This document shows positions 394 through 46,819 of a stretch of 64,000 nt of DNA, one piece after another. Below the pieces are notes generated by a model that saw only the letters and a program-made list of their open reading frames with translations, was not told the origin of the DNA and made no database searches. The DNA lies in IMG/VR virus record IMGVR_UViG_3300025916_000008, positions 40,845 to 104,844 of that record; one strand, written 5' to 3'. Origin of the DNA: a virus. Lineage: Duplodnaviria; Heunggongvirae; Uroviricota; Caudoviricetes. Every line of letters begins with the position of its first letter. Within the stretch, counting starts at the first letter, position 1. Both the position numbers and the translations under genes were made by a program.

Positions 394-586
394 TGCTTCC
401 GGGGTCGACCCAGACGCCTATGCCGCTCCAGGTAACGGCGGGCATCACCTTCCCCATCAGGAGGGCGAGGGTCCTGAGGATCTCGTCCCCTGGAACCCCG
501 TGAGCCTCAAGGAACACCCCCCGCCCCTGGAACGGGTCCTCGGCGGCCATCTCCTCCCGGGAGCGCTCCGTCCACCACGCGGTCAT
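239..586 (-). CDS. hypothetical protein (3' part doubtful)
   Basis: ATG overlaps the stop of the 583-4320 gene (ATGA coupling). The N-terminal ~70 aa are protein-like; the C-terminal Arg/Pro/His-rich tail looks like a wrong frame and overlaps 79-393. Confidence 0.3.
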   Translation of the reverse strand: MTAWWTERSREEMAAEDPFQGRGVFLEAHGVPGDEILRTLALLMGKVMPAVTWSGIGVWVDPGSSETDAGLIRERWDGGKASDDRRPHHAAGERRGDHRLHRPAGDRAARSQGKA

Positions 587-3500: not shown

Positions 3501-4320
3501 CCCAGTCGGGGTCAAACTCGTAGTCCTCCGGGTGATAGTGGTCGGCGCTGCCCTCGAAGTGCTCTTGCGAGTGCCGGTGGGGCAGCGAGATGCGCCAGAA
3601 GTCATTAGGAACGGAAGATCCGCTATACCCGTGCTCCTCCGCCATGTGATGGTGCAGCTCGGCGTAGTCCTCATCGCTTATCGCAGCAGTGAACGCCCCG
3701 ATCGGCAGTCCCGGCCCGTTGCCGCTGGAGATCCCCTCGGGGTACATCCCGACGGTGGCGGCGTTCTCGTTCTCCTTGTCGCCGCCCTGGTCCTTCGGGA
3801 GGGCCTGGTTCCACCTGTCGTCGCCCTGGCCCTCCTGCGACTCGTCATCGTAGGCGTTCGGGTCCTCGGCTCGGGGGACGGTGCCGTGCTCGGGGGCGTC
3901 GCCGGCGTCGTCCACGTGCGTGCCGTTGATGTCGGTGGCGTGGTGGAGCATGCCGAAGAAGCCCTGCGCCTCCTCGATGGCCGCCAGGCGGGCCAGGACG
4001 GGGCTCTGGCCCATCAGCGGGGGCGGTGCCTCCTCCTGGGGGCCGAGGTTGTCGCGTGCCCACTGCTGCTCTCCCGGCTCCGCCCAGTACATGCCGGTGT
4101 CGCCCTCGCCGCCGTTGTAGTCCCCGTTGCGGGCGTCGTGCTCCGCGTCGTACGCCTCGGCGGCCCGCCGCATCCCGATGACCGTGATCTGGCTGCCGGG
4201 GTCAGGCCGGTCGGTCAGGATGTCGCCCAGCTCGGGGTAGTCGGCGGAGGCAGTGCGGTGCTGCTCCTCCGGGTCCTCGTCGTGCTCCTGGGACAGCCGG
4301 GTTGAGTGCCTCGGGGTCAT
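583..4320 (-). CDS. large (1245 aa) acidic/His-rich protein with SWIM-type zinc finger (CxCx19CxH); possible virion or injected protein
   Basis: Long ORF with an AGGAGG SD upstream of the ATG at 4320. CGC...CSH motif at residues 627-651 (nt ~2368-2442). PDN-type low-complexity repeats at residues 413-440. The antisense ORF 1831-4305 is Arg/Val/Leu-rich, typical of a shadow frame. Confidence 0.6.
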   Translation of the reverse strand: MTPRHSTRLSQEHDEDPEEQHRTASADYPELGDILTDRPDPGSQITVIGMRRAAEAYDAEHDARNGDYNGGEGDTGMYWAEPGEQQWARDNLGPQEEAPPPLMGQSPVLARLAAIEEAQGFFGMLHHATDINGTHVDDAGDAPEHGTVPRAEDPNAYDDESQEGQGDDRWNQALPKDQGGDKENENAATVGMYPEGISSGNGPGLPIGAFTAAISDEDYAELHHHMAEEHGYSGSSVPNDFWRISLPHRHSQEHFEGSADHYHPEDYEFDPDWEDHGGNGGYHDFIASRHEARVPWTDKERGTLHTWQESPPSSTWGDFVNSADFPLLGPGEHVVHEEPGERLGEAEAALDLPHPHDDDDSEIDQGGVEGDDGFPRVHRDAALNVHVRIDGQELKHDHDDDGPDPQPQQHEHDDPDNSLDNSRTTPDNAPDNPADKNGPEITSGQASGGGLPVTPPVTPPDGRKNPDDPGLSPDDPGHPDNWPQAGADVSETGRAYTQGSDDGKVKRGAPAPGPFSPGDGDSGGGGDQGDDPDDGDQPDDDDTPFSKDAALAMFTAAAGSPAFRFEFTAAWHDVVAKAKRIRAEGHVRITHASAGMVIGEVRGDHDTYESGIQRPVGKRMTIQYWACGCPWASFHQDKAAAARYAGRPCSHVMALQFEAQSRGMFGRSFGADAEAPAWSPQTVVVKSYPPYEGDPHAGQWREQWRAPLAHLAHREGWPYVPPVAPRDLAQHIIGHHGLDAGSVARALTRMGDPAKGDIWARAWHDAEHRNKTEHAFNHQHDAPSGLAGETRWPAAFRPEQGFSVDPYGGTPHRDFPGAERSVSLEPLPPHWSSLAPADRATVALLRAGADPGAVGALRVMAGLRATADQANSSWGSQNVSEHPTQKPYGATSPRNWDMDPGSYGFLSGPDPDNWGGIQDDSAMQMPLTNTAAHQVLVPGAPRPVPGDLHWPAVEGWQPEDQGSFGYTDRANTSGPSTSITPRDPEGIRMEEALASGTPYPFRDTVPQLDGALAELRDEPEPALPSTTGDEEIEATAAADGTIGGGSAATGQGQGAAEDIAALGEFGAARRMYLHHLAGTPMGDLARETWPQAQQPSPVGQEPGMGSGDEYLSPGDPSIQTVGNQQWSGGGADSDETAVPAGQPQGQIDDIVAAFQRSAAARGYAGDSRPAVADGDIAAAARAHLSKTADVLPQAEAEELIREGAGSRARNLDLLRLEGTHYEDADEDLGKRGISLDDYDDDVMFA
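3000..3084 (-). repeat. short periodic repeat (ttgtccgg every ~11 nt) inside the 1245-aa gene
   Basis: Encodes a PDN/DNS low-complexity segment; an adjacent direct repeat of ggcggagtgaccggc encodes PVTPPVTPP. Confidence 0.5.
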
Positions 4321-5255: not shown

Positions 5256-5672
5256 GTGCCTTACGCGATTGCCGGCGTGGTCGTCTTCGTCCTGCTCGTG
5301 GCCGGGGGCGTCGAGCTTGACGACCTTATGCACGAGTACCCCGGCCAGTTCTACATGGGCGTCTTCGCCACACTGTTCATCGCCGTGGGCTGCGGCACCG
5401 CGCTGCTGCGCAGGGCCGCCAGGGGCGGGCACCAGGTGCCGCTCGTACGGGAGCTGCCTCCCCTGCCGAAGGCGATCCAGGCGGTGCCGGTCATGACCGC
5501 CGCCGCCGTGACGGCGGGGCCGCAGGAAGAGGTGGAGTGCGAGCGCCAGGACTGCGACCACAGGGTGGTCCCCAAGGCAGCCTGGGGCGTCCGGCTGGAG
5601 GGCGAGGCGAGGGAGCACCTGTTCTGCTCGGAGTGGTGCGCCCAGGCGTGGGACTCCGCCAGGGTGTCCTAG
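5256..5672 (+). CDS. membrane protein with C-terminal Cys cluster
   Basis: GTG at 5256 (residue 46 of ORF 5121-5672) 8 nt after a GGAGG; two hydrophobic helices; C-terminal ECERQDCDH...CSEWC. Its stop overlaps the stop of the convergent fibre gene. Confidence 0.5.
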   Translation: MPYAIAGVVVFVLLVAGGVELDDLMHEYPGQFYMGVFATLFIAVGCGTALLRRAARGGHQVPLVRELPPLPKAIQAVPVMTAAAVTAGPQEEVECERQDCDHRVVPKAAWGVRLEGEAREHLFCSEWCAQAWDSARVS

Positions 5673-8600
5673 CCGGGCGCTCCCGCGTAGACGCGGCGCT
5701 GTGCCTCCTGGAAGGCGGTGTAGGCGAGGTCGGCGTCGCGCTCGGCGTCGTAGGCCTGGGCGTAGAGGAAGCCCGCCGACCCGTCGGTGCCGCCGGCCTG
5801 CCGCATCATCTTGTAGTTCGACAGCTTCTGGTCGGCGATGATCTTCAGTGCCAGGTAGGAGGACCAGAGAGCCTCAAGGTCCGGGCCGGCCGTCGCCGAC
5901 GCGGCGAGCAGCGGCGTGCCGGACAGCGCGGCCTGGCCGAACCGGGTGAACGCGGTGGCGTACAGCACCGGGAGCGCGTGCAGGGAGGCCGCCCCCTGGA
6001 TGGGGATTTCCCCGGCGGCCGTCATCGTGCCCGGCGCGGCCAGGTGAGCTGTCCCGTTCTTCCCACGGGTCCCCTGGGCGTGCAGGATCGCGGCGGCAAG
6101 CAGCCCGGCAGTGAAGTGGAGGACACGGTGGCCGGCGGGGTGAAGCGCCCCCGAGCCGGACAGCGCGGCCGTGCCGGGCACCGTCCGGACGTGCCCGGCG
6201 AAGATCGTCCCGGACCCGGAGAGCGGCGCGACGGGGTTCTTGGCGACGGAGGGGGTGCCGCCGAAGGTCCCGATCCCCGACAGGGAGGCACCGGACGGGA
6301 TGTTCTTCCGGGAGACGGCGGCCAGGGTGCCCGACCCTGACAGCGGGGCGTGGCCCTCGTGCCCGATGACGGCGGCGGAAGCAAGGGAGCCGGGTGCCGA
6401 CATGGCGGCGGACGCGGCGTGCCCGTGGACCGGCGGGGCGGTCAGGGTCCCGGACCCGGAGAAGGCGACGACGCCCGGGACGAACTTCCTGCCGGCGGCG
6501 GTGAAGGTGCCGGACCCCGACAGCGGGGCGAACCCCGCGAAGGTCATGATGAAGACGGCCGTGAGGGAGCCCGAGCCCGACAGCGCCGCTGCACCGGGCG
6601 AGATGACCAGCGCAGCGCCCCCGATGGACCCCGAGCCCGACATCGCTGCGGTACCCGGGACCAGCTTCTGGCCGGTGCCGGAGGCGGTGCCCGAGCCGGA
6701 CAGGGAGACGGCGGCCTGGACCAGCACCAGGGCCTGGCCGCTGAGGGTCCCTGAGCCGTCCAGGGCGATGACGCGCGAGAAGGCGACCAGGGCGGCTGCG
6801 GTGATGGTGCCCTGGCCGTCGAGGGGAGCGGCCCCGGGGACCAGCTTCTGGCCCGCTGCGGTGAACGTGCCGGAGCCGTTAAGTGCCGCCGCGCCTGATA
6901 TGAACCCGCCCTCGACTGCCGTGATGCTGCCGGAGCCGTCCAGGGCTGCGGCACCGGGAACCGTCTTCTGCCCTGTGGCGGTGAAGCTCCCGGACCCCGA
7001 CAGGACGGCGGTGCCGCCCGGGATGATGATCGTCGGCGGTGCCGTCAGGGTGCCCGAGCCGGACATCGCCGACGCGCCCGGGACCTGCTTCTGCCCGGTC
7101 GCGGTGACCGTCCCCTGGCCGTCGAGGGCCGCCGCGCCGGGGACGCTCTTCTGGCCCGTTGAGGTGATGACGCCCGAGCCCGACATGGAGGACGCGCCGG
7201 GCACCTGCTTCTGCCCGGTCGCGGTGAAAGTGCCCGAGCCGGACATCGAGGACGCAGCCGGGACGATGACCGTCGGGGGTGCCGTGACGGTTCCGGAGCC
7301 GGAGAGGGCGGCTGCTCCGGGAACCTGCTTCTGGGCGGTGGCCGCGATGGTCCCCGAGCCCGACAGGGAGGCGGCCCCGGCGAGCACCCCGGCGGCGGTG
7401 AGCGTCCCCGAGCCCGACATCGCTGCGGTACCCGGGACCAGCTTCTGGCCGGTCGCGGTGAACGTCCCCGAGCCGGACAGGGCGGCCGAGCCGAAGGCGA
7501 AGATGGCGAAGGACCCGGTGAATGTCCCGATACCCGACAGGGAGGACGAGCCGGGAACCTGCTTCTGGGCGGTGGCAGTGATCGTGCCGGAGCCCGTGAG
7601 GGCTGCCGATCCCGCCAGGACCCCGGCAGCGGTGAAAGTGCCCGAGCCGGACATCGCCGACGCGCCGGGGACAGTCTTCTGGCCCGTAGCCGTGAAGGTG
7701 CCGGACCCTGCCAGGGCGGCGCTGCCCGCGAAGACCCCGGCCGCCGTGATAGTCCCTGACCCGGTGAGGGCGGCAGCACCGGGCACCGTCTTCTGGCCGG
7801 CGGCGGTGATAGCACCCGAGCCTGACAGGGAGGCCGTGCCGGCGTGCGTGACGGTTGCCTTGAACGTCGCGGCGACGGCAGTGTAGTCGGCGGCCGTCGT
7901 CTGCGTCCCGGAGTAGGTGACAGCCCCCGTGCTGGTCAGCACCTGGTAGCCGGCGACCAGGCCCATGACCCCGCCGGGCGAGTTCTGCTGCGCCAGGTTG
8001 AACCACGGGCTCGACGGCCCGCTGATCGTGCCGATGGACGGGCTGGCGAAGGCCCCCACCGCCCCGATGGCGACCTCGGAGGCCTGGGTGGTCGCCGCCG
8101 TCGCCCCGGAGGACCAGGAGGTAACCGTGGTGTCGCTGATCCCGCTGGAGGTCTTGTCGGGGGTAGCGGTGTTGGCCAAGCCGAACCACTCCATGACCGT
8201 GACCATGAGGGCGGCCCCGGTGCCCGAGGACGTGAAGGTAATGGAGAGCGCCGTCTGGCCGCCGGCGCAGTTGGGGTCAGCCCAGATCGCCGTCGTCATG
8301 AAATCAGAGGAGACGTTCCCGGCGGTGAGCGACTGCGCGAAGTTGTCGGCGCTGCCGCCGAGGGTGATCCCGGTGACGCTCGGGTTGTTGGTGCCCGCGT
8401 CCCCGGTGACGCACACGATCAGGCAGTTGCCGGAGGTCGTCGTCCAGGGCAGGGTTATGGATACCGGCGATGCAGCGCCGTTGCCCGTCACCGACTGGAC
8501 GAGCGACGGCTTCCCCTGGATGCCCCCGGTCGCCCTGATCGTGCCGGAGCCCGACAGGGAGGCGGTACCGCTGTGAGTGGTGCCCACGGCTTTGAACGTG

Positions 8601-9241
8601 GCGATGAGGGCCGCACCGTCAGATGACGAGGCGAACGTTCCCGCGTAGGACGGCGTGCCCGTCGCGGAAAGCACGTTGTAGCCGACGAGCAGGCCCACGT
8701 GCGTGCTGGCGCTGGTGACCTGGGTGAGGTTGGTCCACGGGGACGACGGCCCGGTGATGGTCCCGACGCCGCTGCCGTTGAAGGTGCCGACCGCGCCGAT
8801 CGCGACCTCGGACGCCTGGGTGGTCGTTGCCGTGGTACCCGACGACCAGGAGGTGATAGCCGATGCGACGTTCCCGGCTGTCTTATCCACGGGCGTCGTG
8901 GTGGCGATCCCCGACCATTCCATGACGATCACGTCGACCGACCCGGAGGCGGCGCTGACCGTGACCACGACGGAGGTCTGCCCGCCGGCGCAGTTCGGGT
9001 CGGACCAGAGGTACACCGACTCGCTGTCAACGGACGGGTTCCCGGCCGTGGCCGACTGCGCGAAGTTGCCGGCCGAGCCGCCGAGGGTGATCCCGCTGAC
9101 CGTGGGGTTCGTCGGAGACGACGAGGTGACGACGGCAACGACCAGGCAGTTACCTGCCGTCGTGCTCGACGTCAGGGTAACGGTCACCGTTGTCACGGAG
9201 GCCGCTGTCGCTGACTTCGACTGGACAAGCGACGGGGCCAC
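5669..9241 (-). CDS. tail-fibre-like repeat protein (structural, putative receptor-binding)
   Basis: 1190 aa with AGGAGGGAGG SD before the GTG at 9241. Two similar ~230-aa N-terminal domains. About 25 tandem 19-aa repeats (GSGTxTAxGQKxVPGxAAL). The internal + ORF 6171-7886 is the antisense shadow of the repeats, with third codon positions coinciding. Confidence 0.55.
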   Translation of the reverse strand: MAPSLVQSKSATAASVTTVTVTLTSSTTAGNCLVVAVVTSSSPTNPTVSGITLGGSAGNFAQSATAGNPSVDSESVYLWSDPNCAGGQTSVVVTVSAASGSVDVIVMEWSGIATTTPVDKTAGNVASAITSWSSGTTATTTQASEVAIGAVGTFNGSGVGTITGPSSPWTNLTQVTSASTHVGLLVGYNVLSATGTPSYAGTFASSSDGAALIATFKAVGTTHSGTASLSGSGTIRATGGIQGKPSLVQSVTGNGAASPVSITLPWTTTSGNCLIVCVTGDAGTNNPSVTGITLGGSADNFAQSLTAGNVSSDFMTTAIWADPNCAGGQTALSITFTSSGTGAALMVTVMEWFGLANTATPDKTSSGISDTTVTSWSSGATAATTQASEVAIGAVGAFASPSIGTISGPSSPWFNLAQQNSPGGVMGLVAGYQVLTSTGAVTYSGTQTTAADYTAVAATFKATVTHAGTASLSGSGAITAAGQKTVPGAAALTGSGTITAAGVFAGSAALAGSGTFTATGQKTVPGASAMSGSGTFTAAGVLAGSAALTGSGTITATAQKQVPGSSSLSGIGTFTGSFAIFAFGSAALSGSGTFTATGQKLVPGTAAMSGSGTLTAAGVLAGAASLSGSGTIAATAQKQVPGAAALSGSGTVTAPPTVIVPAASSMSGSGTFTATGQKQVPGASSMSGSGVITSTGQKSVPGAAALDGQGTVTATGQKQVPGASAMSGSGTLTAPPTIIIPGGTAVLSGSGSFTATGQKTVPGAAALDGSGSITAVEGGFISGAAALNGSGTFTAAGQKLVPGAAPLDGQGTITAAALVAFSRVIALDGSGTLSGQALVLVQAAVSLSGSGTASGTGQKLVPGTAAMSGSGSIGGAALVISPGAAALSGSGSLTAVFIMTFAGFAPLSGSGTFTAAGRKFVPGVVAFSGSGTLTAPPVHGHAASAAMSAPGSLASAAVIGHEGHAPLSGSGTLAAVSRKNIPSGASLSGIGTFGGTPSVAKNPVAPLSGSGTIFAGHVRTVPGTAALSGSGALHPAGHRVLHFTAGLLAAAILHAQGTRGKNGTAHLAAPGTMTAAGEIPIQGAASLHALPVLYATAFTRFGQAALSGTPLLAASATAGPDLEALWSSYLALKIIADQKLSNYKMMRQAGGTDGSAGFLYAQAYDAERDADLAYTAFQEAQRRVYAGAPG
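6100..7830 (-). repeat. in-frame tandem 57-bp repeat array inside fibre gene (~25 units)
   Basis: Protein-level 19-aa repeats; exact DNA duplicates of at least 45 bp, e.g. cgagcccgacatcgctgcggtacccgggaccagcttctggccggt, occur near 6640 and 7420. Confidence 0.6.
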
Positions 9242-9317
9242 GGGCGCGCCTCCCTCCTATGAGGCCCGCGTGCGGCCGGGCGGTCCTAGCGCCGCGCCGC
9301 GTTCCTGGGCGACGCGG

Positions 9318-9731
9318 TTACCAGACGCTTGCGTCGCAGGTCACGGCCCCGGAGGCGAACTGAACCGTGTCACCGTTCGCGACCCCGGTGATATTGGCGG
9401 TCAGAGCGCCCTGGAACCAGCGGAGCGGGGTGCCTGCGGTGTCCCAGATCTCGACTGAGGTGATGGTCGTCCAGGAGCCGGTCGCCGTCCACGACGGGGT
9501 GTTAGACGAGGTGGACACGCCGGAGGAGTTCGCGCCAAAGGTGATCGCTACGCCGCCGGCGGTGTAGCCGGGGCAGTTACCTGAGGTGGCCTCGGTGCCG
9601 TTGGAGGTGTTGGACCCCTGGGCGGTCATCAGCCGCAGGTGCAGGGCGGTCGGGTAGGTCGGGGCGGACCCGCCGTGCAGGATCGCGTCCATGATGGACG
9701 CGGCGCGGGTCCGGTCGGTCATCGATGCCAT
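9318..9731 (-). CDS. small Thr/Ser/Gly-rich structural-module protein
   Basis: 137-aa ORF immediately upstream of the fibre gene on the same strand. Confidence 0.45.
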   Translation of the reverse strand: MASMTDRTRAASIMDAILHGGSAPTYPTALHLRLMTAQGSNTSNGTEATSGNCPGYTAGGVAITFGANSSGVSTSSNTPSWTATGSWTTITSVEIWDTAGTPLRWFQGALTANITGVANGDTVQFASGAVTCDASVW

Positions 9732-9732
9732 G

Positions 9733-9939
9733 TCAGGAAACCTCCGCGCTGAAGCCGGCCAGGATGATGGTCACGGGGCGGCAGGGGATTCCGGTTTCCC
9801 TGTTCGCCTGCCCGTGGTTGTGGGGCTGCGTGCAGCACTTGCAGCCCGCCGCGTCCAGCGCGTCGTGGATGTCCACGTCATCGGAGGTGACGGCGGCGAC
9901 CGCCGTGCACTCCTTGTTCACGCACTGCACCAGGTGCAT
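9733..9939 (-). CDS. small Cys-rich protein
   Basis: 68 aa (residue 283 onward of ORF 9733-10785); ATG at 9939 preceded by GAGGAGGA; C..C...CKCC..H.H. Confidence 0.4.
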   Translation of the reverse strand: MHLVQCVNKECTAVAAVTSDDVDIHDALDAAGCKCCTQPHNHGQANRETGIPCRPVTIILAGFSAEVS

Positions 9940-9950
9940 GCCGGTCCTCC

Positions 9951-12227
9951 TCACCCCCGCGCGGGGGCGTAGCTCTCGTAATCCACCAGGTCGCCGTCGT
10001 CCTCGGTCACGCCGAGGCGCGAGCGGATTCCGACGTGCGGCGGGTCCTGGTAGCCCCGGATCGACGGGCCGGAGAACCAGGTGCCCTGTCCCTTCTGGGC
10101 CTGCGCCTCGCTTTCTGCCTGGTGCGCCGCGAGGACGGGCAGGCCGTCGCTCCCGGAGGCGGCGATATCCCCCTCCAGGGCGGCCTCGTTGACGGCACGG
10201 GCCAGGGCTGCCATGCGGCGCACCCGGTCGGAGCGGCGCATCAGCGCCCCCTGCTTCGGCATGCCGCGCTTGCCGGCCTTCGGCATCGGGCCGCGCTGCT
10301 CGGAGGACTCCGGCGGTACCTGCGGCATGCCGCCCGCGTCCTCTCCGGCGATCTCGCCCTCGCTCGGGGCGTTGACCGGGCCGCCCGCCTGGGCCTCCAT
10401 CTCCTCGGCCATCTGCTGGTCCTCGGGGGTGGGCGCGAGGTCCGGCAGGGGCAGCGGCTGGACGCCCATCCGGTCGATCATCATCTGCTGGGCGGCCAGG
10501 GCCGGGGGAACGCCCTCCACCTGGGCGACGGGGGAGAAGTCGGCCATGAGGTCCGGCGGGACGGGCAGGCCCTGGTTGCGCAGCTCGACGAACGCCTGGC
10601 GGCGGGTGCGGGCCTGGGCGATGATGTCGGCGACCGCCTCGTCCTGGCTCTGCTCGCGCTCCTCGTCCAGGTCGACCCCGAGCCCCCGCGTGCGCGTGCG
10701 AGCGGAGATCGGGATGCCGGAGGCGCGCAGCGCCTCGGTGAACTGGCGGGTGATGTCCTCGTCCCGGAAGTTGAGGACCTGGCACTTGAGGTCGGGCACC
10801 AGGAGCTTGGGCTGCTCGGTGATCCGCTTCTCGCCGGTCTCCTCGTCGGTCTCCAGGACCTCCTCCATGATCACGAAGCGGCGGCCGGAGCGCTCCTCGT
10901 AGTCATAGTGTTCCTGCGCTTCAGCAACAATGAGCATCCGCTTGCGCATGTGCCTCATGAGCATCTGCTGGTAGGTGGTCATGAGCTGCTCGACGAGCTG
11001 CTTGTTGAGCGCGTCGGCGGCGTACGTCTGCCCCTCGCCCGCCCCGGTGAGGAACGTCCTGGACAGGCCGAACACCTGGAGAACCCGGTCCTCGATCCGC
11101 TCGAAGTCCATGCTCAGGTCAGGCATGTTCTCCCGGCCGAACACCGGCTCGATCTCCACCGCGAAGTTGTGGATCAGCGCCCGGAAGTCGCCCGCGAGGG
11201 CGGCGTCCAGCGCCATCTCGAAGTTCTCCAGGTCATCGTCGGTGGGAATCCACGGGACGCTGGTGCCGAGGTCGGTGGCGGACGCGCCGAGCTTGCACAG
11301 GATCAGCGGGGTGTAGAGCCGGTCGGCGATCGAGTCGAGCGCGGTGTTGAGCATCTCCTGCTGGAGCATGGAGCGCATCGCCCGGGTGAGCAGCGGCAGG
11401 CCCCGCAGGCTGAAGGTGTCGCCCTTGAACCGGAGCTGGCGCAGCAGGATGTTGCTGACCGGCATGAATGCGTTCTCGGCGGTGTAGGCGGCCAGCTCCG
11501 GGTACTCCTGGACCAGCCGGTTGTACTCCCAGGCCGGCTGGCGGGTGGTGAGGATCTGCCGGATCGTCCACGGCAGCCGGGTGAAGTACCGGGGCTCCTT
11601 CAGGAACGGGCTGCGCTCCACCTTGATGTCGTCGGCGTTGAGCAGCTCCTCGTCGTCCCAGATGCCCAGGTCCTCGTTGAACGTGGCGAACGGCCACGCC
11701 TCCCCGGTGATGTAGTACTCGCGGCCGATGTCGACGAGGAACTCGCCGTAGTCAAGGCCGTCGTCGCCGAAGAACAGGTCCTGGTAGAAGTCGGTGAGCC
11801 GCTGGTCCTTGCACTCCAGGTGCGCCCCGACGACAGGGAACTTGCTGAAGATGTCGACGCAGGAGCCGACGATCGGGTCGGTCTGGTAGAGCAGCCGGCA
11901 GAACGCCCGGACCTTCGCCAGCTCCTCGTTCTGGGAGAAGTCGTAGGGGAGGTTGTTCTGCCGCCAGTAGAACAGCGGGTCCCTGGGCCGTCCGGTGGCG
12001 AACTGGATGTCGGAGAAGCCAGACCCCCCGGCTCCCCCGGCCGTGTAGGCGGTGCGGCGGCCGACGGACGCCTGCCGGGCGTTGATCCGCCGGTTCTTGC
12101 GGGCCTCGGCGACCTCGGGGCTCATCTGCTCGGAGCTGAGCGCACCGACGCCCATCGTCCGGCCGAGCTGCCTGGCTACTGACGCCTGCCGGGCGGTGCC
12201 CGACCCCGGCCTGTACGCGACTCGCAT
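9951..12227 (-). CDS. large (758 aa) structural-module protein, function unassigned (portal or connector-like or tail component candidate)
   Basis: Long ORF with an AGGAGGT SD; globular N-terminal 550 aa then an acidic Pro/Gln/Ala-rich C-terminal tail; position next to the fibre genes. Confidence 0.5.
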   Translation of the reverse strand: MRVAYRPGSGTARQASVARQLGRTMGVGALSSEQMSPEVAEARKNRRINARQASVGRRTAYTAGGAGGSGFSDIQFATGRPRDPLFYWRQNNLPYDFSQNEELAKVRAFCRLLYQTDPIVGSCVDIFSKFPVVGAHLECKDQRLTDFYQDLFFGDDGLDYGEFLVDIGREYYITGEAWPFATFNEDLGIWDDEELLNADDIKVERSPFLKEPRYFTRLPWTIRQILTTRQPAWEYNRLVQEYPELAAYTAENAFMPVSNILLRQLRFKGDTFSLRGLPLLTRAMRSMLQQEMLNTALDSIADRLYTPLILCKLGASATDLGTSVPWIPTDDDLENFEMALDAALAGDFRALIHNFAVEIEPVFGRENMPDLSMDFERIEDRVLQVFGLSRTFLTGAGEGQTYAADALNKQLVEQLMTTYQQMLMRHMRKRMLIVAEAQEHYDYEERSGRRFVIMEEVLETDEETGEKRITEQPKLLVPDLKCQVLNFRDEDITRQFTEALRASGIPISARTRTRGLGVDLDEEREQSQDEAVADIIAQARTRRQAFVELRNQGLPVPPDLMADFSPVAQVEGVPPALAAQQMMIDRMGVQPLPLPDLAPTPEDQQMAEEMEAQAGGPVNAPSEGEIAGEDAGGMPQVPPESSEQRGPMPKAGKRGMPKQGALMRRSDRVRRMAALARAVNEAALEGDIAASGSDGLPVLAAHQAESEAQAQKGQGTWFSGPSIRGYQDPPHVGIRSRLGVTEDDGDLVDYESYAPARG

Positions 12228-12279
12228 CTGACCTCCTACCCCTTCCGGGGAGGAGGTCAGGAGGTCAGGTCAACTGCCT

Positions 12280-12741
12280 CTACTCGTAGTGGCTGAAGCG
12301 GGCGTCGTACGGGTTGTCCGCGATCCACCGCTTCGCCGTCCCTGCGGTGCCCTCCGGGTCGCCCGCCGCAGCCGCGCGCTGCCACTGCTCGCCCATCGCC
12401 CGCACCACGTGCGGGTGCCGCAGCTCCCTGAAGGCGTTAGCGGCGACGCTGTGGTCATGGGGGCCGAGGTCGGACCAGACAGCCCCGCCCGTCGGGTCAC
12501 CGGGGTGGAGGGCCATCATGTGCCACCTGTTGCTCTCGGCGTCCAGGTGGAAGCCGATCTTGTGCCCGGTTTCCAGGCGCAGGTTGTCATCGGGCCAGTA
12601 CTCCCTGCCCGGGTGCAGGCCGTGCGCCTGGAGCTGCTCCTCCACCCGGTTGGTGCGCTCCTGCAACTCGCCGAACGGGATAGCCCACGTCCCCCGGTGC
12701 CCCCGGTAGTGGTACGGGTAAGCGTTCTCGCCGTAAATCAT
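12280..12741 (-). CDS. member 1 of tandem paralog family (RLETGHK ... LRHPHVVRAMGEQWQRA)
   Basis: ATG at 12741 (residue 50 of ORF 12280-12888) with a GGAGGA SD. Shares N- and C-terminal motifs with genes 12915-13367, 13367-13777 and 13777-14427. Confidence 0.5.
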   Translation of the reverse strand: MIYGENAYPYHYRGHRGTWAIPFGELQERTNRVEEQLQAHGLHPGREYWPDDNLRLETGHKIGFHLDAESNRWHMMALHPGDPTGGAVWSDLGPHDHSVAANAFRELRHPHVVRAMGEQWQRAAAAGDPEGTAGTAKRWIADNPYDARFSHYE

Positions 12742-12914
12742 CAGGGTCCTCCGCGTCGAGGATCGCCTGCGCCAGCTCGCGCCACCCGGCCCAGGTGCGA
12801 GCGGGGTGGAGGATGATCCACTGGCCGTCGCAGTGGCTGGTGAACTCGGGGATGCCGTCAGCGCCGAGGAGGCGGCGGCCGGAATCACCGGATGGCTGGA
12901 GGCTGCTCACGCTG

Positions 12915-13367
12915 TCATCCTTCCGGTTCCTGCTCGGGGTAGTGGGCGAAGACGTGGGAGGTGACCTGCGGGTAGGGCCGCCTCTGGTCACTGATCCCGT
13001 GCGGGGTGCCGTTGGCGTAGGCGCGCTGCATCTGCTCGCCCATCGCCCGCACCACATCCCGGTGGTGCAGCTCCTGAATCGCCCGGTGCTGGACCAGGTG
13101 ATCGGTCATGCCCAGGTCCGACTCGATCATCGTGTTGTCCGGGTCACCGTGGTGGTGGACCTCCATCCTCCAGCGGCCCGTTTGCGGGCTCAACTGGAAG
13201 TGGGCGAAGTGCCCGGTCTCCATCGGCATGACGAAGGGCCAGTCCTTGTCGGTCATCCCGGAGTCCTGCATGCCGCCGAGCACTGTCCCGTTGCGCCGCT
13301 TCAGCTCCCCGTGGGAGAGGTTCTCGCCTGGGCGCACGTAGTCGTCGGGGGGTTCCTGCCAGGGCAT
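12915..13367 (-). CDS. member 2 of tandem paralog family
   Basis: ATG at 13367 overlaps the upstream stop (TGATG); motifs ETGHF...LHHRDVVRAMGEQMQRA. Confidence 0.5.
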   Translation of the reverse strand: MPWQEPPDDYVRPGENLSHGELKRRNGTVLGGMQDSGMTDKDWPFVMPMETGHFAHFQLSPQTGRWRMEVHHHGDPDNTMIESDLGMTDHLVQHRAIQELHHRDVVRAMGEQMQRAYANGTPHGISDQRRPYPQVTSHVFAHYPEQEPEG

Positions 13368-13777
13368 CAGACCTCGAACTTCCTGTACCAGCGGGGCTCC
13401 GGCTGGCCACGGTGCTGCATCATCTCGCGCATCGAGGCCATGACCCCCGGGTGGCGCAGCATGGCGTGGACGGACTCGCCGAGCCGGGAGTGGTCGCCGC
13501 CGAGGTCGCCGTGCTCGACCTGGAGGATGCGCGAGAGGGCGGGCCGGTCGTCCTCGTGGGTGACGTACGACGTCCACTGGCCGTCCTCGCCGCCGAGCAG
13601 CGTCTCGACGTGGTGGCCGGTGTCGTAGGTGGCCCCGGGCTGCTCGTTCTCGGGGTGGCTGCGGGGGAGCAGGCCGTGCGCCTTCATTGAGCGCACGCCC
13701 TCGGCGATGCCCTGCACGTGCTCGTCCTCGCCCATCCACCGGCCGGCAGCGCGCCGTACCGCCTCGAAGGCTCCCAT
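13367..13777 (-). CDS. member 3 of tandem paralog family
   Basis: 136 aa; LRHPGVMASMREMMQHRG C-terminal motif; start overlaps the upstream stop. Confidence 0.5.
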   Translation of the reverse strand: MGAFEAVRRAAGRWMGEDEHVQGIAEGVRSMKAHGLLPRSHPENEQPGATYDTGHHVETLLGGEDGQWTSYVTHEDDRPALSRILQVEHGDLGGDHSRLGESVHAMLRHPGVMASMREMMQHRGQPEPRWYRKFEV

Positions 13778-14427
13778 CAGCGCCCCCGCGTCATGTCGAG
13801 GAGCAGCCGGTTCCCCGTCTGGGCCGGGCCGCGCCCCTGCGCCCGGTCCATCTGGTCGCGCATGTGGCCCAGGACGTCCGGCCGCCTGAACATGCCGTGC
13901 AGCAGCGGGCCGACGTGCTCAGGAACCTCGCCGAGGTGCGCCTCCACGACGTGGCCCTGGTCCCCTTGCGGGTGCCAAACCTGGACGTGGAAGCCAGGCC
14001 GGGGGTCCGCGCCGAACAGCCCCTCGTTCTCCTCGCGGCCTCGTGGCCCCACGTGGTACAGCCACATCTTGTGCCCGGTGTCGAGTCGCATCTGGGAGTC
14101 GGGGAAGCCGTGCTCGGCGAGCGAGTCCTTCATCCGGTCCCAGTCCCCACCGTCGCCGAAGACGTCCCTCGGGTCGTCTATGTTCCTCACTGCGGTGAAC
14201 CTGGGGCTGCGGGAAGCGTCTGGCGAACCGCGCCATTCTGGCTCATGGTCACGGTGGTCCTCCTCGTGCATGTGCATCAGCACGTGCAGCGGGAGCATCC
14301 CCGCCACCCCGAGCTGGTGGGTGCCGTCCATGTGGGCGCGCAGCTCCGCCAGGTCCCGCAGGGGCTCGTGCCCCTCGGGGACCGCCGTGCGGATGAACGC
14401 CTCCGCCAGGCGAAGGCTAGTAGTCAT
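13777..14427 (-). CDS. member 4 of tandem paralog family
   Basis: 216 aa; RLDTGHKMWLYH and GMFRRPDVLGHMRDQMDRAQ motifs. Confidence 0.5.
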   Translation of the reverse strand: MTTSLRLAEAFIRTAVPEGHEPLRDLAELRAHMDGTHQLGVAGMLPLHVLMHMHEEDHRDHEPEWRGSPDASRSPRFTAVRNIDDPRDVFGDGGDWDRMKDSLAEHGFPDSQMRLDTGHKMWLYHVGPRGREENEGLFGADPRPGFHVQVWHPQGDQGHVVEAHLGEVPEHVGPLLHGMFRRPDVLGHMRDQMDRAQGRGPAQTGNRLLLDMTRGR

Positions 14428-15592
14428 CGCCGATCCCGTGCTGGCGCAGCCAGTCCTGGTCGCCGAGGTGGATGTCCTCGCCGTACTCGCCCTCCAGGTC
14501 GGGGTGCACGTGCTCCAGGCGGGCGTCGGCGTGCTCGTTGCGGTGCGTGTCGTCGATCACCCAGTCCGGGTCGTCAGGCGTATCGACGAACCCGTGCCGG
14601 TCCCTCATGTGCCGCCGCAGCTCGCCCTCGCTCATTTCATCGTGGCTGGGATCTACGCGCACGGCGGCCCTACCGAAAGGGCGGCGGCCCCTGGAAGCCT
14701 GGCGGGACGGGGTGCCCTGAAGGCGCTGCGGGGCAGCGTTCCACCACTCGCCGGGAGCATCCTGGGGCATGCCCGGCTGGCCGCCCGCGTGGCCCGGGGT
14801 GGTGGAGTCGATGAACGACCTGGCGAGGCCGGTGCCGAGCTGGCGCTCCGCCTCGGCGTGCGGGTCGCTGCCCTGGCCGAGGTGCATGTAGTGGACCTGC
14901 TGGTAGGCAGGGTGGCGGATGACGCCGTACCAGTCGCCGCCCATGCGCCCGACCGACACCTGGTGCCCGGTGGGCAGGGTGCGGTAAACGGCCTCCCCGG
15001 TCGCCGCAGCGCGCCGGGTGCCCCCCTCGGCGCGCAGCCGGGCCATGACCCGGGGGTCAGCGCCGGACAGCCGGACGGCCAGGTGGCGGACAAGCTGCGC
15101 TTCGGTGAGAGACTGCCCCTCAAGGCCACGGAAACGAGCAGATTCCTTCTTGTTCTTCCCCTTACCGGACTTCTCGTCCTTCTTCGGGGGAAACGGCGTA
15201 TCGTCGTCACCGCCATCATCGCCAGGCGGAAGTTCCTCACCGTCCGGCGGGATACCCTCAGGCCCGCCTTCCGCTGCGGCATCACCGGGAGGCGGGCCTT
15301 CCCCGTCTGCGGGCATGCCGTCAGGCCCGACCATGGCGGGGTCGAGCAGCCCGCCGTCCGGGCCGGTGTCGGAGGGGGCTCCGGGACCCATCGGCATCTG
15401 GGGCATCCCGGGGAACGCCGGCTGGACGCGGACGATGTAGTTCTGCCCGCAGAAGTCGCAGCCGATCGTGCCGTCGGAGCGGCCGACCACCTGGCCAGAG
15501 CCGCAGAACGGGCAGTGGCTGGTGACCAGCGGGTCGCCGGGGTCATGGGCTGTCCTGCGGCCGACGCCGCGCGGCCGGGTGCTCGTGTTCAT
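14417..15592 (-). CDS. Zn-ribbon protein with Pro/Gly/Asp low-complexity linker and paralog-family-like C-terminal region
   Basis: 391 aa; N-terminal CPFCGSG...CDFCGQ; C-terminal ELRRHMRDRHGF resembles the family motif. Confidence 0.5.
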   Translation of the reverse strand: MNTSTRPRGVGRRTAHDPGDPLVTSHCPFCGSGQVVGRSDGTIGCDFCGQNYIVRVQPAFPGMPQMPMGPGAPSDTGPDGGLLDPAMVGPDGMPADGEGPPPGDAAAEGGPEGIPPDGEELPPGDDGGDDDTPFPPKKDEKSGKGKNKKESARFRGLEGQSLTEAQLVRHLAVRLSGADPRVMARLRAEGGTRRAAATGEAVYRTLPTGHQVSVGRMGGDWYGVIRHPAYQQVHYMHLGQGSDPHAEAERQLGTGLARSFIDSTTPGHAGGQPGMPQDAPGEWWNAAPQRLQGTPSRQASRGRRPFGRAAVRVDPSHDEMSEGELRRHMRDRHGFVDTPDDPDWVIDDTHRNEHADARLEHVHPDLEGEYGEDIHLGDQDWLRQHGIGDDY

Positions 15593-15616
15593 GGGGCCTC
15601 CTGCCCCTTCCGAGCG

Positions 15617-15832
15617 TCACAGCGCGACCTCCCCGCCGGCCATGTCCGAAAGGCGGAGCCCCTTGGCGTTGCGGTACCCCTCGGCCCACGTCATCGCCTC
15701 CTGGCCGAGGTGGTCAGCGAGCGCCTTCCTCGCCCCGGCGAACGTGCCGAAGACGCGCTCGCCGTCTACCGGGTCCTCGGTTTCCGCGATCCCGCCCGTG
15801 GCATTCGACCCGGACCACCACCTGTAGTTCAT
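15617..15832 (-). CDS. hypothetical protein (first gene of leftward block)
   Basis: 71-aa ORF just left of the divergent control region. Confidence 0.4.
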   Translation of the reverse strand: MNYRWWSGSNATGGIAETEDPVDGERVFGTFAGARKALADHLGQEAMTWAEGYRNAKGLRLSDMAGGEVAL

Positions 15833-15861
15833 GCCCCGATTCTATGCTGCTCTCTTGGAAA

Positions 15862-15880
15862 TATACAGCTTTTCTTGATA
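15862..15880 (+). promoter_or_regulatory. 19-bp motif copy (tatacagcttttcttgata) in divergent control region
   Basis: 18 of 19 match; between leftward gene 15617-15832 and rightward gene 15891. Confidence 0.7.
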
Positions 15881-15890
15881 AGCTGCGGGA

Positions 15891-16274
15891 ATGAGCGTGA
15901 AGAGCAGGAACGGCTCATGGAAGGGGCCTACGAGCATGAGTGAGACTAGCCAGGAGCCGGGCGGGTTCAGCGTCGCGGTGGTCACCGGCTTCAGCCCGGT
16001 CGAGATCTCGATCCAGCACCTCGTCCTGGACATCGACCCGGACGACTTCTTCACCACCGACAACATGCCGCGCGGACGGGACTACGGGTTCGACGCGGTA
16101 GACGTCGGCTACGCCATCGAGGACGCCGGGTACGAGCCGACCTCCGACCTCCAGTGGACAGGCACCCACTGGGCCTACGTCGTGCAGCCGAAGACAGACC
16201 CGGCCGGTGACCCGCGCTACCACCCCGGGAAGCTCCCGCCGCTCAGGGCGTGGGAGCAGGGCGGCTACGAGTGA
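15891..16274 (+). CDS. hypothetical acidic protein (first gene of rightward block)
   Basis: 127-aa ORF; an alternative ATG at 15936 would give the usual ~55-nt spacing from the motif copy. Confidence 0.45.
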   Translation: MSVKSRNGSWKGPTSMSETSQEPGGFSVAVVTGFSPVEISIQHLVLDIDPDDFFTTDNMPRGRDYGFDAVDVGYAIEDAGYEPTSDLQWTGTHWAYVVQPKTDPAGDPRYHPGKLPPLRAWEQGGYE

Positions 16275-16558
16275 CTAGCCGGCAGCCGGAGCGCACGCTC
16301 GTCTTCAGGTACGACGGTGACGGGCGCTGCTGGTTCTCCGCCCCTCAGGCGGACGTGACGGGCATGCGGTACCCGGCCCGCTGCACCCGGTGCGGGCACG
16401 TCTACGACCTGGCCGCGCTGCGGAACGTCCTGCGGTACGCCGAGTGCGACGTCTGGAGCTGCCCAGGCTGCCGGGTCACCGTCAGCGACCGCACCGGGTC
16501 GCCCGATCATCACTACACCGAACTCGGTGCCGACGGTTACGAGAAGAGGCCATCATGA
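16271..16558 (+). CDS. Zn-ribbon protein
   Basis: GTG at 16271 overlapping the upstream stop (GTGA); CTRCGH...CPGCRV. Confidence 0.45.
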   Translation: MTSRQPERTLVFRYDGDGRCWFSAPQADVTGMRYPARCTRCGHVYDLAALRNVLRYAECDVWSCPGCRVTVSDRTGSPDHHYTELGADGYEKRPS

Positions 16559-17181
16559 AGCCCAGGACCGTGCAGGAGAGGCTGGACGCGGCGGGCGGCC
16601 TGCCGGCGCTCGAAGAGGCCGTCGGCATCCCGGCGGCGCAGTGGGGCGGCAACTGCCACGGGATCTCCCTGGCGGTGCTGAAGAGCGGTCTGCTCGGCTC
16701 GGGGCGGGTAGCGCGCGGCACAGCGCGCGGGGTGACCAGCCAGCACTCGTGGATCATCCTCGGGGACGAGCCGCTGCCCAGCGTTTACAGCGAGGAGTCG
16801 GTGATCGCCGACCCGACGATCTTCAGCTACGAGCGACGGGACCCGTACGTCCTGGTCAAGCAGAACCTGATGCACACCCACTGGCCGCACGGGGCCGGGG
16901 ACATCTGGACGCAGGGCGGCCCGCCTCCCGAGCCGACGGGGAAGCTGATCGAGCTGGAAGGCTACGAGGGCCTGTCCGAGCTGGCCAGGTCCTTCCTGGA
17001 GCTGTGCGGCTACCCGCTGGACTACCGGGGCTGGGCGCACCTCGTGCACGGCCCGGCCGAGGGGTGGCCCTGCGGGGAGATCGTCACCGCCATGTGCGCC
17101 ACGAAGGAGCTGGCCGTCGTCACGCCGATCGACGTCATCGGCATGACCACCGAACTCAACCCGAAGGGGCTGTACTGGTGA
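16555..17181 (+). CDS. hypothetical protein, possible papain-like cysteine peptidase (QWGGNCHG ... H)
   Basis: ATG at 16555 (residue 56 of ORF 16390-17181) after a GAGAAGAGG; Gln 5 residues before Cys as in papain-like folds. Weak. Confidence 0.45.
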   Translation: MKPRTVQERLDAAGGLPALEEAVGIPAAQWGGNCHGISLAVLKSGLLGSGRVARGTARGVTSQHSWIILGDEPLPSVYSEESVIADPTIFSYERRDPYVLVKQNLMHTHWPHGAGDIWTQGGPPPEPTGKLIELEGYEGLSELARSFLELCGYPLDYRGWAHLVHGPAEGWPCGEIVTAMCATKELAVVTPIDVIGMTTELNPKGLYW

Positions 17182-18003: not shown

Positions 18004-18816
18004 ATGACCCGCAGGAGGATTATCGCCGGGTGCGAGTGCTCCGGGATGGTGGCGAACGCCTTCGCCGAGCTGCTCGGCTGGGAGGCATACTCCTGGGACA
18101 CCGAGCCGGGCGAGATGCCGGACCGGGACTACCCGAATGGCGGAACCTACCGGCATGTCCAGGGCAACATCCTCGACGACCCGGAGGCGGGCACGCTCGG
18201 GGCGTTCAACTGGTATCACCCGGTGAACCGCCAGCGGGCGCAGGAGGCTGACGAGGCCGAGAGCGCACGCGGCGAGAGCATCCCGCTGTGGGACTTCGGG
18301 GCATTCTTCCCGCCGTGCACCCACCTGAGCCAGGCGGGCGCGGTGTGGTGGAAGCACAAGGACGCCACCCGGGGCGGCGACGGCCGGATGCAGGAGGGCG
18401 CGGCGTTCTTCATGCAGATGGTGAAGCTGGGCCGCGCCACGTGCACGTACTCCGCCGTGGAGAACCCGGTCGGGGTGATGGGCCTGCCCAGCCAGTCGTG
18501 CTACTACCGGCGGCCCGACCAGGTGGTGCAGCCGCACATGTTCGGCGACCCGCTGATCAAGGCGACGTGCTTCTGGCTGGAAGGGCTGCCCCTCCTGACC
18601 GCCGACAGGCCGGTCGAGCCGACCGGACGGGTGGCGACCGGCGGCGGGAGCTGGCGCACCGACCAGCGTCACGGGCGCGGGGCGAACAACGGCCACGAGG
18701 ACGCCAAGGGCCGCAGGTTCCGGCAGCGCGAGCGCAACCGGACCCTGCCCGGCCTGGCCAGGGTGATGGCCGAGCAGTGGGGCACGTGGATCGAGTCGCA
18801 GGAGCGCGCCGCGTGA
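18004..18816 (+). CDS. DNA cytosine-5 methyltransferase-like protein (degenerate motifs)
   Basis: FPPCTHLSQAG resembles motif IV (PCQxFSxAG) but with Thr in place of Gln; AVENPVGV resembles the ENV motif; N-terminal IAGCECSGMV resembles motif I. Confidence 0.5.
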   Translation: MTRRRIIAGCECSGMVANAFAELLGWEAYSWDTEPGEMPDRDYPNGGTYRHVQGNILDDPEAGTLGAFNWYHPVNRQRAQEADEAESARGESIPLWDFGAFFPPCTHLSQAGAVWWKHKDATRGGDGRMQEGAAFFMQMVKLGRATCTYSAVENPVGVMGLPSQSCYYRRPDQVVQPHMFGDPLIKATCFWLEGLPLLTADRPVEPTGRVATGGGSWRTDQRHGRGANNGHEDAKGRRFRQRERNRTLPGLARVMAEQWGTWIESQERAA

Positions 18817-46339: not shown

Positions 46340-46819
46340 ATGAGGTACTTCGCGCTGGTAGGGACCGACGACAGCGTGGTCGCAGGCGAGGTCTGCGACC
46401 TGATCATCGTGGACGAGGACTCCCCCGGCGCGTCCGGGCTATCGCTTCCGCTGTTCGTCAAGGTCACCGACCCCGACAAGCTGGGCAAGGCCCAGGCCGC
46501 CGCCGAGGGCGTGCTCCGTGAGCTGGACTGGCGCGTCACCGGGCCATGGGAGATCGCCGACACGCACCTGCGCGCCCCGGTGGAGATGAGGGGGCCAGGT
46601 ACGGCCGGGGCAGCGCCGCGCGAGGCCGACGAGTGGCCCGCCGGGAAGTCCTTCGGCGAGCTGAGCCCGGGGCAGAAGGTCGTCCAGGCGAGGAAGGCCG
46701 GGCGGAGGCTGGAGGCGGAGCTGAACTCCCCTGCGGTGCAGGCCGCGATCAGCGCGCTCCTGGACTCGGACCTGGACGAGCAGGACGCGGCAGCCGTCGA
46801 GCGGCACCTCGGCCTGTAG
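46340..46819 (+). CDS. hypothetical protein
   Basis: ATG at 46340 after terminator + motif + leader. Confidence 0.5.
   Translation: MRYFALVGTDDSVVAGEVCDLIIVDEDSPGASGLSLPLFVKVTDPDKLGKAQAAAEGVLRELDWRVTGPWEIADTHLRAPVEMRGPGTAGAAPREADEWPAGKSFGELSPGQKVVQARKAGRRLEAELNSPAVQAAISALLDSDLDEQDAAAVERHLGL

Follow-up and report, generated by a model that had tools for sequence, protein, structure and literature searches.

Polyvalent proteins carry 2–15 distinct domains per polypeptide, and their genes adjoin virion packaging genes (portal, MuF, terminase; PMC5512222). Enzyme domains encoded beside portal or MuF genes have been read as capsid-delivered polyvalent proteins (Iyer et al., 2017; PMC5512222). In large myoviruses, clusters of diverging paralogs in the head-gene region encode internal or ejection proteins, for example in the phiKZ-like phage SPN3US (PMC5694885). 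Diverging arrays of orphan small proteins beside phage head genes are a familiar kind of thing. Here, we describe such an array, the genes A to E carried by the minus strand of a 64,000-nt stretch of an IMG/VR virus record (IMGVR_UViG_3300025916_000008, positions 40,845–104,844; Caudoviricetes). This whole stretch is called the window; its G+C content is about 70%. A is the portal-proximal member of the array. In what follows, L and a number designate a related contig or locus, and P and a number a related database protein.

A, B, C, and the C-terminal half of D are paralogs of one α/β domain of about 110 residues, named M1. A second module, M2, is found in D and in the Zn-ribbon protein E, and comparison with related loci shows that the array of the window is a modular protein split into separate genes. 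The best fit to this organization is a diversified role, accessory or directed at the host: in relatives, M1 is fused to the Zn-ribbon protein as a polyprotein, and also to 2H phosphoesterase and GNAT-like domains. The gene set thus reads: Zn ribbon, linker, helical pair, M1-like copy, and M2 in one gene, then M2-M1, M1, M1, and M1. Its parts are listed below in the order of transcription, with the E-values of hidden Markov model (HMM) matches where these define the part; those marked ORF are delimited by their open reading frame.

14417..15592, minus strand: gene E, 391 aa, Zn-ribbon protein (ORF)
15443..15514, minus strand: Zn ribbon of E, residues 27–50, CPFCGSGQ…CDFCGQ, read from the sequence
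14798..15055, minus strand: divergent M1-type domain of E, residues ~180–265, YRTLPTGHQVSVG…WYGVIRHP…HYMHLG
14492..14695, minus strand: M2 module of E, residues 300–367, ELRRHMRDRHG…THRNEH…, predicted His-rich helical hairpin
13777..14427, minus strand: gene D, 216 aa, M2-M1 (ORF)
14182..14427, minus strand: M2 module at the N-terminus of D, residues 1–82, SLRLAEAF…LRAHMDGTH…MHMHEEDH, containing HExxH
13777..14145, minus strand: M1 of gene D, residues 95–216 (HMM E-value 7e-40)
13367..13777, minus strand: gene C, 136 aa, single M1 (HMM E-value 5e-43)
12915..13367, minus strand: gene B, 150 aa, single M1 (HMM E-value 6e-42)
12280..12741, minus strand: gene A, 153 aa, single M1 (HMM E-value 2e-48)
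9951..12227, minus strand: portal gene, 758 aa, the next gene in the same direction (phrog_2833, E-value 1e-143)

The five ORFs had been pointed out in an earlier note, made by a model from the letters of the window. They are present on the minus strand, with a G+C content at third codon positions (GC3) of 0.87–0.96 in the annotated frames and GGAGG-like (Shine-Dalgarno-like) sequences ahead of most starts. The note described the genes as chained by 1-nt TGATG overlaps. This holds for the D/C and C/B junctions; E and D overlap by 11 nt, and B and A are 173 nt apart, the gap being coding in a third frame. The "structural-module gene" that the note placed downstream of an expanded, diverging family is the portal gene, and the expansion itself is confirmed by the copy numbers and subgroups described below.

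M1 is recognized by the signature [ED][TS]GH…W…HPxD…LG…LRxPxV…M..Q, whose elements occur in that order. Among the paralogs, BLASTP gives E-values of 1e-22 for A and B, 1e-6 for A and D, 1e-4 for A and C, and 1e-3 for C and D. Against the six-frame translation of the window, an HMM built from 27 family members matches only A, B, C, and D (E-values 1e-40 to 1e-48). Conservation was then counted over 113 distinct M1 copies from relatives. In the TGH motif, G is found in 110 of 110 copies and H in 109 of 110. The second His is present in 102 of the 113 copies, and the two residues of LG in 104 and 109 of them. Order and spacing of the motifs are kept across the 113 aligned copies. Hence, low-complexity His similarity as the cause of the family, the outcome that the note itself had named as refuting, is rejected. 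Indeed, A–D are rich in His (8.1–8.7%, vs. 0.8% in the portal protein), but only two His are conserved family-wide, so that the similarity of A–D is not a composition effect. Taken literally, the strings of the note, R[LM][DE]TGHK and LRHPxV..M..QMQRA, describe A and D, or A and B; for the other genes the fit is loose.

At the DNA level, A and B share 87% identity over 54 nt at the LRHP…QRA motif, and this is the sole repeat within the array. Hence, the duplications are old, and a recent tandem duplication is rejected. The ratio of nonsynonymous to synonymous substitution rates (dN/dS) of orthologous pairs lies between 0.26 and 0.5 overall, with values of 0.26 for A (its ortholog in L011 is 78% identical), 0.26–0.39 for D (orthologs in L013 and L016), and 0.32–0.45 for E. 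Such values indicate that the genes are maintained under purifying selection.

The AlphaFold2 (AF2) model of A has a predicted local distance difference test score (pLDDT) of 84 and a predicted template modeling score (pTM) of 0.80. It contains a helix (residues 23–39), three strands (61–67, 72–78, and 87–93), and two helices (96–107 and 110–125), so that the predicted order of the M1 fold is helix, three antiparallel strands, two helices. Strand 1 starts at the [ED][TS]GH motif and strand 2 ends at HPxD, and in an antiparallel sheet these positions are neighbors. Because these near-invariant motifs adjoin in the predicted topology, a His/His/carboxylate site for a metal ion or another ligand is plausible; in A, it would involve H60, H79, and E57 or D82. 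Judged by size, element order, and motif order, A, B, C, and residues 95–216 of D belong to M1, and residues 180–265 of E weakly so.

From its N-terminus, E is made up of a Zn ribbon, a Pro/Gly/acidic linker, a Lys-rich patch, a conserved helical pair (LTEAQLVRHLAV…), a divergent M1 copy, and M2. The earlier note had seen in E a relative of the paralogs by its C-terminus. The relationship stands, and the M1-like copy is situated in the middle of the protein, the C-terminus being an M2 module like that of D. With default filters, the M1 HMM does not match E; with filters off, it reaches residues 181–247 at 12 bits. When the M1 family is compared by hhalign with the aligned mid-regions of 16 E homologs, a probability of 64% and an E-value of 6.4e-5 are obtained, with TGH, W, HP, and LG in register. 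The AF2 model of E is confident only at residues 150–270 (pLDDT ~90), and there the elements follow the same order as in A, with a helix (180–198), three strands (211–217, 220–226, and 233–239), and two helices (244–252 and 255–264). The two models support a fold shared by A and by residues ~180–265 of E.

The Zn ribbon is very conserved. Its peptide, HCPFCGSGQ…VRVQPAFPGMPQ, belongs to a 61-aa N-terminal segment that is 92–100% identical across loci whose portals are 74–88% identical. The ribbon of E scores 15.5 bits against the Pfam family Lar_restr_allev (PF14354) and that of P0031 18.5 bits, below the gathering threshold of 28.6; a Lar restriction-alleviation protein is thus rejected in favor of a generic Zn-ribbon similarity. 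LAGLIDADG-type inteins are inserted at two positions of the Zn-ribbon knuckle, before CPFCG in P0167 and P0035 and between CPF and CGSGQ in P0120. Inteins at two positions of one knuckle argue that it is an extremely conserved and probably essential site.

M2 has about 70 residues, follows the pattern LRxHMxxxHG…hHExxH, and is predicted to form a two-helix hairpin (helices 322–333 and 343–355 in the AF2 model of E). A jackhmmer search of a small local database, seeded with residues 1–82 of D, reaches residues 300–367 of E with an E-value of 4e-23 after iteration; a narrow single-pass HMM does not reach that region. The HExxH element, found in many M2 copies (HEEDH in D), gives way to HRNEH in E and to HDxxH in other copies. 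A zincin metallopeptidase is accordingly rejected for M2, HExxH not being conserved and no Pfam peptidase family being matched.

In related loci, the same modules are joined or separated in other ways. In L010, P0031 is a single ORF of 1139 aa that abuts the portal gene and contains the Zn ribbon, the linker, the helical pair, and five M1 copies. P0032, P0033, and P0035 carry 3–4 M1 copies together with M2 and Cys-rich modules. Such multi-module relatives reach 1185 aa, and P0031, P0032, P0033, and P0035 have at least six modules per chain. M2 is repeated in the polyproteins P0032, P0033, and P0064, and a Cys/His-rich module (CTTC…CGPACEEGHH…CHYC) is also carried by polyproteins. Smaller rearrangements are found as well: P0070 is E fused to D, P0006 and P0074 are M2 fused to a C-type M1, L001 has M2 as a separate 56-aa gene, and the M1 part of D is encoded alone in relatives, as proteins of 134–141 aa. 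Finally, two fusions bring in other domains, a 2H phosphoesterase in P0095 (Pfam E-value 1.6e-7) and a GNAT-like C-terminus in P0078. The latter is encoded in L096, directly upstream of a portal gene whose product is 83% identical to that of the window.

In the polyproteins, modules are repeatedly introduced by a linker of the form (E)ASLRRRAA-x-D-[WY], which is similar to the starts of D (TSLRLAEAF) and of C-type proteins (GAFEAVRRAA). Of the 113 M1 domains, 10 have it ahead of them, vs. 0.4 in shuffles; the linker motif is thus real but not universal, and a universal cleavage site is rejected. C-type and short D-type members carry a conserved MGxFEAIRRAA at the N-terminus, which A and B lack.

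M1 was searched for in large protein collections. A word-indexed search of 5.8 billion proteins with the M1 profile returned 30 clusters, and an exhaustive HMMER search of 1.84 billion representatives returned 71 clusters at E≤1e-3; none of the matching clusters bears a name or a Pfam domain. With a profile broadened to 57 sequences, only four more proteins were gained, all short and single-domain; none has a Pfam domain, and no further fusion partner appeared. B is identical to the database protein P0001, encoded on a metagenomic contig of 162,409 bp, and C-type relatives are P0009, P0014, P0015, P0017, P0018, and P0026. Homologs of E form at least 148 clusters, all unnamed. For M1 and M2, searches of A–E and of the polyproteins against Pfam, PHROGs, PADLOC, and NCBIfam were empty, and a profile search of PDB sequences gave only noise. 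Foldseek against BFVD yielded no match at E≤1e-3. Likewise, A and E had no tblastn match among 50,697 phage records, and the M1 HMM found nothing in the portal neighborhoods of Rhodococcus phage E3 and Gordonia phage Pupper. M1 and M2 are families new to Pfam, PHROG, NCBIfam, PADLOC, and the PDB sequences.

Related loci were gathered with the Zn-ribbon peptide as query. The Zn-ribbon gene is present in 75 IMG/VR loci, many of them on contigs of 146–167 kb, and in Streptomyces assemblies, where it is found on four contigs of 151–157 kb, one of which is the circular "plasmid" pRLB1-9.1, annotated as hypothetical throughout. In the loci checked, it heads a unit that ends in the portal gene, the portal being 48–88% identical to that of the window. 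The Streptomyces loci (L088–L091 and L094) come from Streptomyces sp. MH60, A0642, cg35/RLB1-9 (plasmid pRLB1-9.1), and NPDC021080. In these elements, which are probably genomes of extrachromosomal phages or phage-plasmids, the Zn-ribbon gene and the portal (52–54% identity) are present and M1 is absent. They point to Streptomyces as the probable host group of these phages. pRLB1-9.1 is reported to be lost often in matings (bioRxiv 10.1101/2024.05.27.596038).

The position of the array is fixed. In the window and in every related locus with the portal on the contig, it is directly upstream of the portal gene, and wherever the flanks are on the contig, M1 copies are found between the Zn-ribbon gene and the portal gene. 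The exceptions are three loci in which two additional M1 copies immediately precede the Zn-ribbon gene, and L096 (3.7 kb), which lacks the Zn-ribbon gene. In L035 (11199–14510), the portal matches in two pieces about 1.2 kb apart, probably owing to an intein or homing-endonuclease insertion. Copy number varies. Most loci have no M1 copy, six have 2–4, three have 7–9, and L002 has about 10, and the whole range from 0 to about 10 is seen among relatives whose portals are 75–88% identical. At a cutoff of 50% identity, at least 24 subgroups of copies are distinguished, and phages with portals 85–88% identical have few of them in common. A D-like copy tends to be first in the arrays and an A-like copy last. 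As far as these collections reach, the family is limited to one group of uncultured soil phage-like elements of ~150–167 kb.

Two further small ORFs belong to the leftward operon.

15617..15832, minus strand: 71-aa ORF, first gene of the leftward operon, GC3 0.91, 3′ of the divergent intergenic region 15833–15890
12744..12910, minus strand: small conserved non-M1 ORF between B and A, GTG start at 12910, GC3 0.89–0.91

The 71-aa ORF has no family match in Pfam or PHROGs. The ORF between B and A (window 12587–12910, GTG at 12910) contains …EFTSHCDGQWIILHPARTWAGWRELAQAILDAEDP and has as homolog a 61-aa gene at the same position of L001 (10824–11009). Its frame misses by one base the TGA of the TGATG at the start of A and stays open to 12587, 155 nt into A; this read-through could reflect a 1-nt indel, an assembly error, or a real overlap. 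The translation-initiation regions of E (15593–15615) and of the portal gene (12228–12250), both on the minus strand, are nearly identical (CGGAAGGGGCAGGAGGCCCCATG and CGGAAGGGGTAGGAGGTCAGATG). A scan of 9000–16400 for sigma-70 promoters and terminators found nothing, including no terminator-like site before the portal gene, and Rfam gave no match in 9000–17000. The only AT-richer spot of the region, 15833–15890, separates the divergent gene sets (GC 51% at 15800–15899). It holds a palindrome, CAGCTT-N8-AAGCTG, and a TAGAAT about 9 nt 5′ of the ATG of the 71-aa ORF. These features suggest a promoter from which a leaderless transcript would start; the consensus scan gave no sigma-70 site there.

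Downstream of the portal gene, the minus strand continues with genes for proteins of 137 aa (9318–9731), 1190 aa (5669–9241), and 1245 aa (583–4320). The first resembles the "podophage GP4 fiber I protein gp80" family PF23140 (E-value 2e-13), the second is an orphan, and the third has E3 gp76 and Pupper gp93 as relatives. By synteny, the next gene should be that of the capsid maturation protease, which falls outside the window. Farther away, a protein of 1825 aa (56652–62129, minus strand) has Arr-ms (rifampin ADP-ribosyltransferase-like), 2H/LigT phosphoesterase, and RNA-ligase-like regions and is itself a candidate polyvalent protein; Arr-ms giants of this kind occur downstream of the portal gene in L002 and L008. 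The window also encodes a uracil-DNA glycosylase superfamily protein (54302–54874, minus strand), a DNA methyltransferase (phrog_757; 18004–18816, plus strand), and a protein with an anti-sigma-type zf-HC2 motif (46340–46819, plus strand).

What could the array do? The reading that we put forward, tentatively and at clearly less than even probability, is that A–E are accessory virion cargo, that is, a split set of the polyvalent or internal-protein type. We infer late expression, packaging, binding of a metal or another ligand, and a host-directed role. E, D, C, B, the small ORF, and A form one co-directional, partly translationally coupled set running into the portal gene, as the common strand and the overlapping stop and start codons suggest. 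According to this model, the proteins would be made late together with the portal and incorporated into the head, possibly via the Zn-ribbon protein. They would then act in or on the next host cell, as is thought for polyvalent and internal head or ejection proteins, and the fast turnover of copies would be an adaptation to hosts. Several observations make this the most likely of the readings considered: the dispensability of the array for the conserved portal and head module, the fusions, the parallels with internal proteins, and the annotation as "structural protein" of a large product of Rhodococcus phage E3 whose gene lies one gene upstream of that for the homologous portal. In particular, the fusion to the Zn-ribbon protein and the occasional 2H or GNAT-like fusion give the array the architecture and context of capsid-delivered polyvalent proteins. 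A more elaborate version, which we regard as a fairly long shot, is a portal-linked cargo system in which M1 would be a new metal-dependent effector or adaptor fold. The Zn-ribbon protein, highly conserved and a target of inteins, would anchor to the portal or to the DNA end and would bring metal-binding M1 and M2 modules, as a freely extensible chain that in some cases ends in an enzyme such as 2H or GNAT, into the capsid and then into the host; gene fission and fusion would tune stoichiometry. Such a system would be found in large actinobacterial phages and phage-plasmids.

Several points weigh against packaged cargo. No cultured phage was found to carry the M1 family in the searches described above, and the single-domain proteins A, B, and C have no recognizable enzyme or targeting signal. 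P0095, which provides the 2H fusion, sits on a 2.3-kb contig without a portal gene, and the GNAT match of P0078 is below Pfam thresholds. The linker motif is ahead of only a minority of domains. In M2, the inconstancy of HExxH, together with the lack of a match to a peptidase family, leaves self-processing unsupported. Finally, the putative metal site is derived from conservation and strand topology, not from model coordinates.

Other explanations keep the proteins out of the virion or on its surface. M1 proteins could be assembly chaperones or adaptors that bind unfolded or extended segments of head proteins during procapsid assembly and are absent from the mature virion. Their clients would be the portal, the Zn-ribbon protein, or large internal proteins, in the manner of the class I chaperones of type III secretion, which bind effectors. 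The small size and mild acidity of the proteins (pI 5.7–6.1) and the location of their genes within a head-gene operon agree with this idea, which we nevertheless consider rather unlikely. Indeed, the element order is helix, three strands, two helices in M1 vs. helix, three strands, helix, two strands, helix in type III chaperones, and five copies covalently fused to a putative client are atypical of chaperones. Moreover, most relatives that have these portal and Zn-ribbon genes, the Streptomyces elements among them, lack the array, and paralog content differs between phages with portals 85–88% identical. That the conserved portal and head module can do without the array speaks against a chaperone essential to assembly, and also against decoration or cement proteins on the outside of the head. 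For the latter, proximity to head genes is the sole favorable point. The genes are not adjacent to that of the major capsid protein, the capsid module is conserved whereas the copies differ in number and identity, the polyprotein forms are tied to the Zn-ribbon protein, and no similarity to known decoration proteins is found; this explanation is very improbable.

The rapid turnover would be expected of non-packaged host-takeover or anti-defense proteins whose genes simply happen to be in the operon. Each M1 paralog would bind and neutralize a different host or competing-phage factor, with an arms-race diversification like that of anti-CRISPR and anti-restriction loci or of tandem arrays of immunity proteins. 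The extreme diversity (at least 24 subgroups, 0 to ~10 copies) of small single-domain proteins is consistent with such a role, and 2H and GNAT-like fusions fit conflict systems (PMC5512222). However, a fixed site in the portal operon and a fusion to the Zn-ribbon protein are unusual for early anti-defense genes, no PADLOC or known anti-defense family is matched, and the dN/dS values give no positive selection at the whole-gene level. The near-invariant His/Asp motif suggests one shared chemistry rather than many binding surfaces, and on balance we judge this role as doubtful as that of a chaperone. Metal handling, to which we assign a slim chance as the explanation of the array, would have M1 and M2 bind Zn, Ni, or Cu for the Zn-ribbon and Cys-rich modules or for head enzymes, or act as pH- or metal-triggered switches during DNA ejection. 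It would account for the high His content of A–D, for the two near-invariant His and conserved Asp/Glu of M1, for the paired HxxxxH and HxxxH helices of M2, and for the co-occurrence of Zn-ribbon and Cys-rich modules in polyproteins. However, most His are not conserved between paralogs, and there is no similarity to known metallochaperones. Metal handling is also compatible with the other explanations and not exclusive of them.

Two uncharacterized modules and a very conserved Zn-ribbon partner are in any case markers of a clade of soil phage-like elements of ~150–167 kb, some of which persist in Streptomyces as circular "plasmids" (pRLB1-9.1). For the time being, the practical outcome is that the family is cleanly defined and that a host system for tests is at hand. 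Should the proteins prove to be packaged cargo, a new domain repertoire would be added to the concept of polyvalent and internal proteins, and the relatives, with 0 to ~10 copies, split or fused, would provide a natural series for studying the dose and diversity of injected proteins. If they are not packaged, the locus is one more orphan paralog array, chiefly useful as an annotation marker.

How does the locus compare with known systems? Rhodococcus phage E3, several Gordonia phages, and cluster-C-type mycobacteriophages have homologous portals, the portal DNA of the window being 64–71% identical to theirs, and E3 and Pupper also share the 1245-aa protein. In E3, Pupper, and the cluster-C-type phages, small ORFs and one large "structural" or methyltransferase protein are likewise encoded upstream of the portal gene. 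However, M1, M2, and the Zn-ribbon protein have no match among the upstream genes of these phages. Type III class I chaperones (CesT/SycE-like) and YbjN-like proteins differ from M1 in the order of elements after strand 3, show no sequence similarity to it, and have no counterpart of its conserved His/Asp motif. With scores too low and an element order too different, membership of M1 in that fold is rejected. In organization, the array resembles the internal proteins IPI–III of T4, which have a capsid-targeting sequence, and the inner-body proteins of phiKZ-like phages; in such proteins, an N-terminal targeting segment or propeptide is cut off by the prohead protease. As in these systems, diverging paralogs are encoded with head genes, and the array looks dispensable and varies between relatives. 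Several members have an N-terminal MGxFEAIRRAA that may be reminiscent of a targeting or processing signal. In contrast, there is no sequence or fold similarity (PHROGs and BFVD, E≤1e-3), and the N-terminal segment is absent from A and B.

Finally, with respect to polyvalent proteins, the window form differs in being split into five or six genes, M1 matches none of the known families, and A–E contain no effector or processing domain recognized by Pfam, NCBIfam, or PADLOC (no zincin, ADP-ribosyltransferase, or methylase), 2H and GNAT-like domains being confined to P0095 and P0078. The number of domains varies with the form considered: one in A, B, and C, two modules in D, about four in E, and at least six in the polyprotein relatives. 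The packaging-gene context is the same, the array being directly upstream of the portal gene. An HExxH-containing module is present, the 1825-aa protein of the window has Arr-ms, 2H, and RNA-ligase-like domains, and the fusion partners of relatives include 2H phosphoesterase and GNAT-like domains. The relatives encode, directly beside the portal gene, multi-module chains in which a Zn ribbon, 3–5 M1 copies, M2, and Cys-rich modules are strung together.

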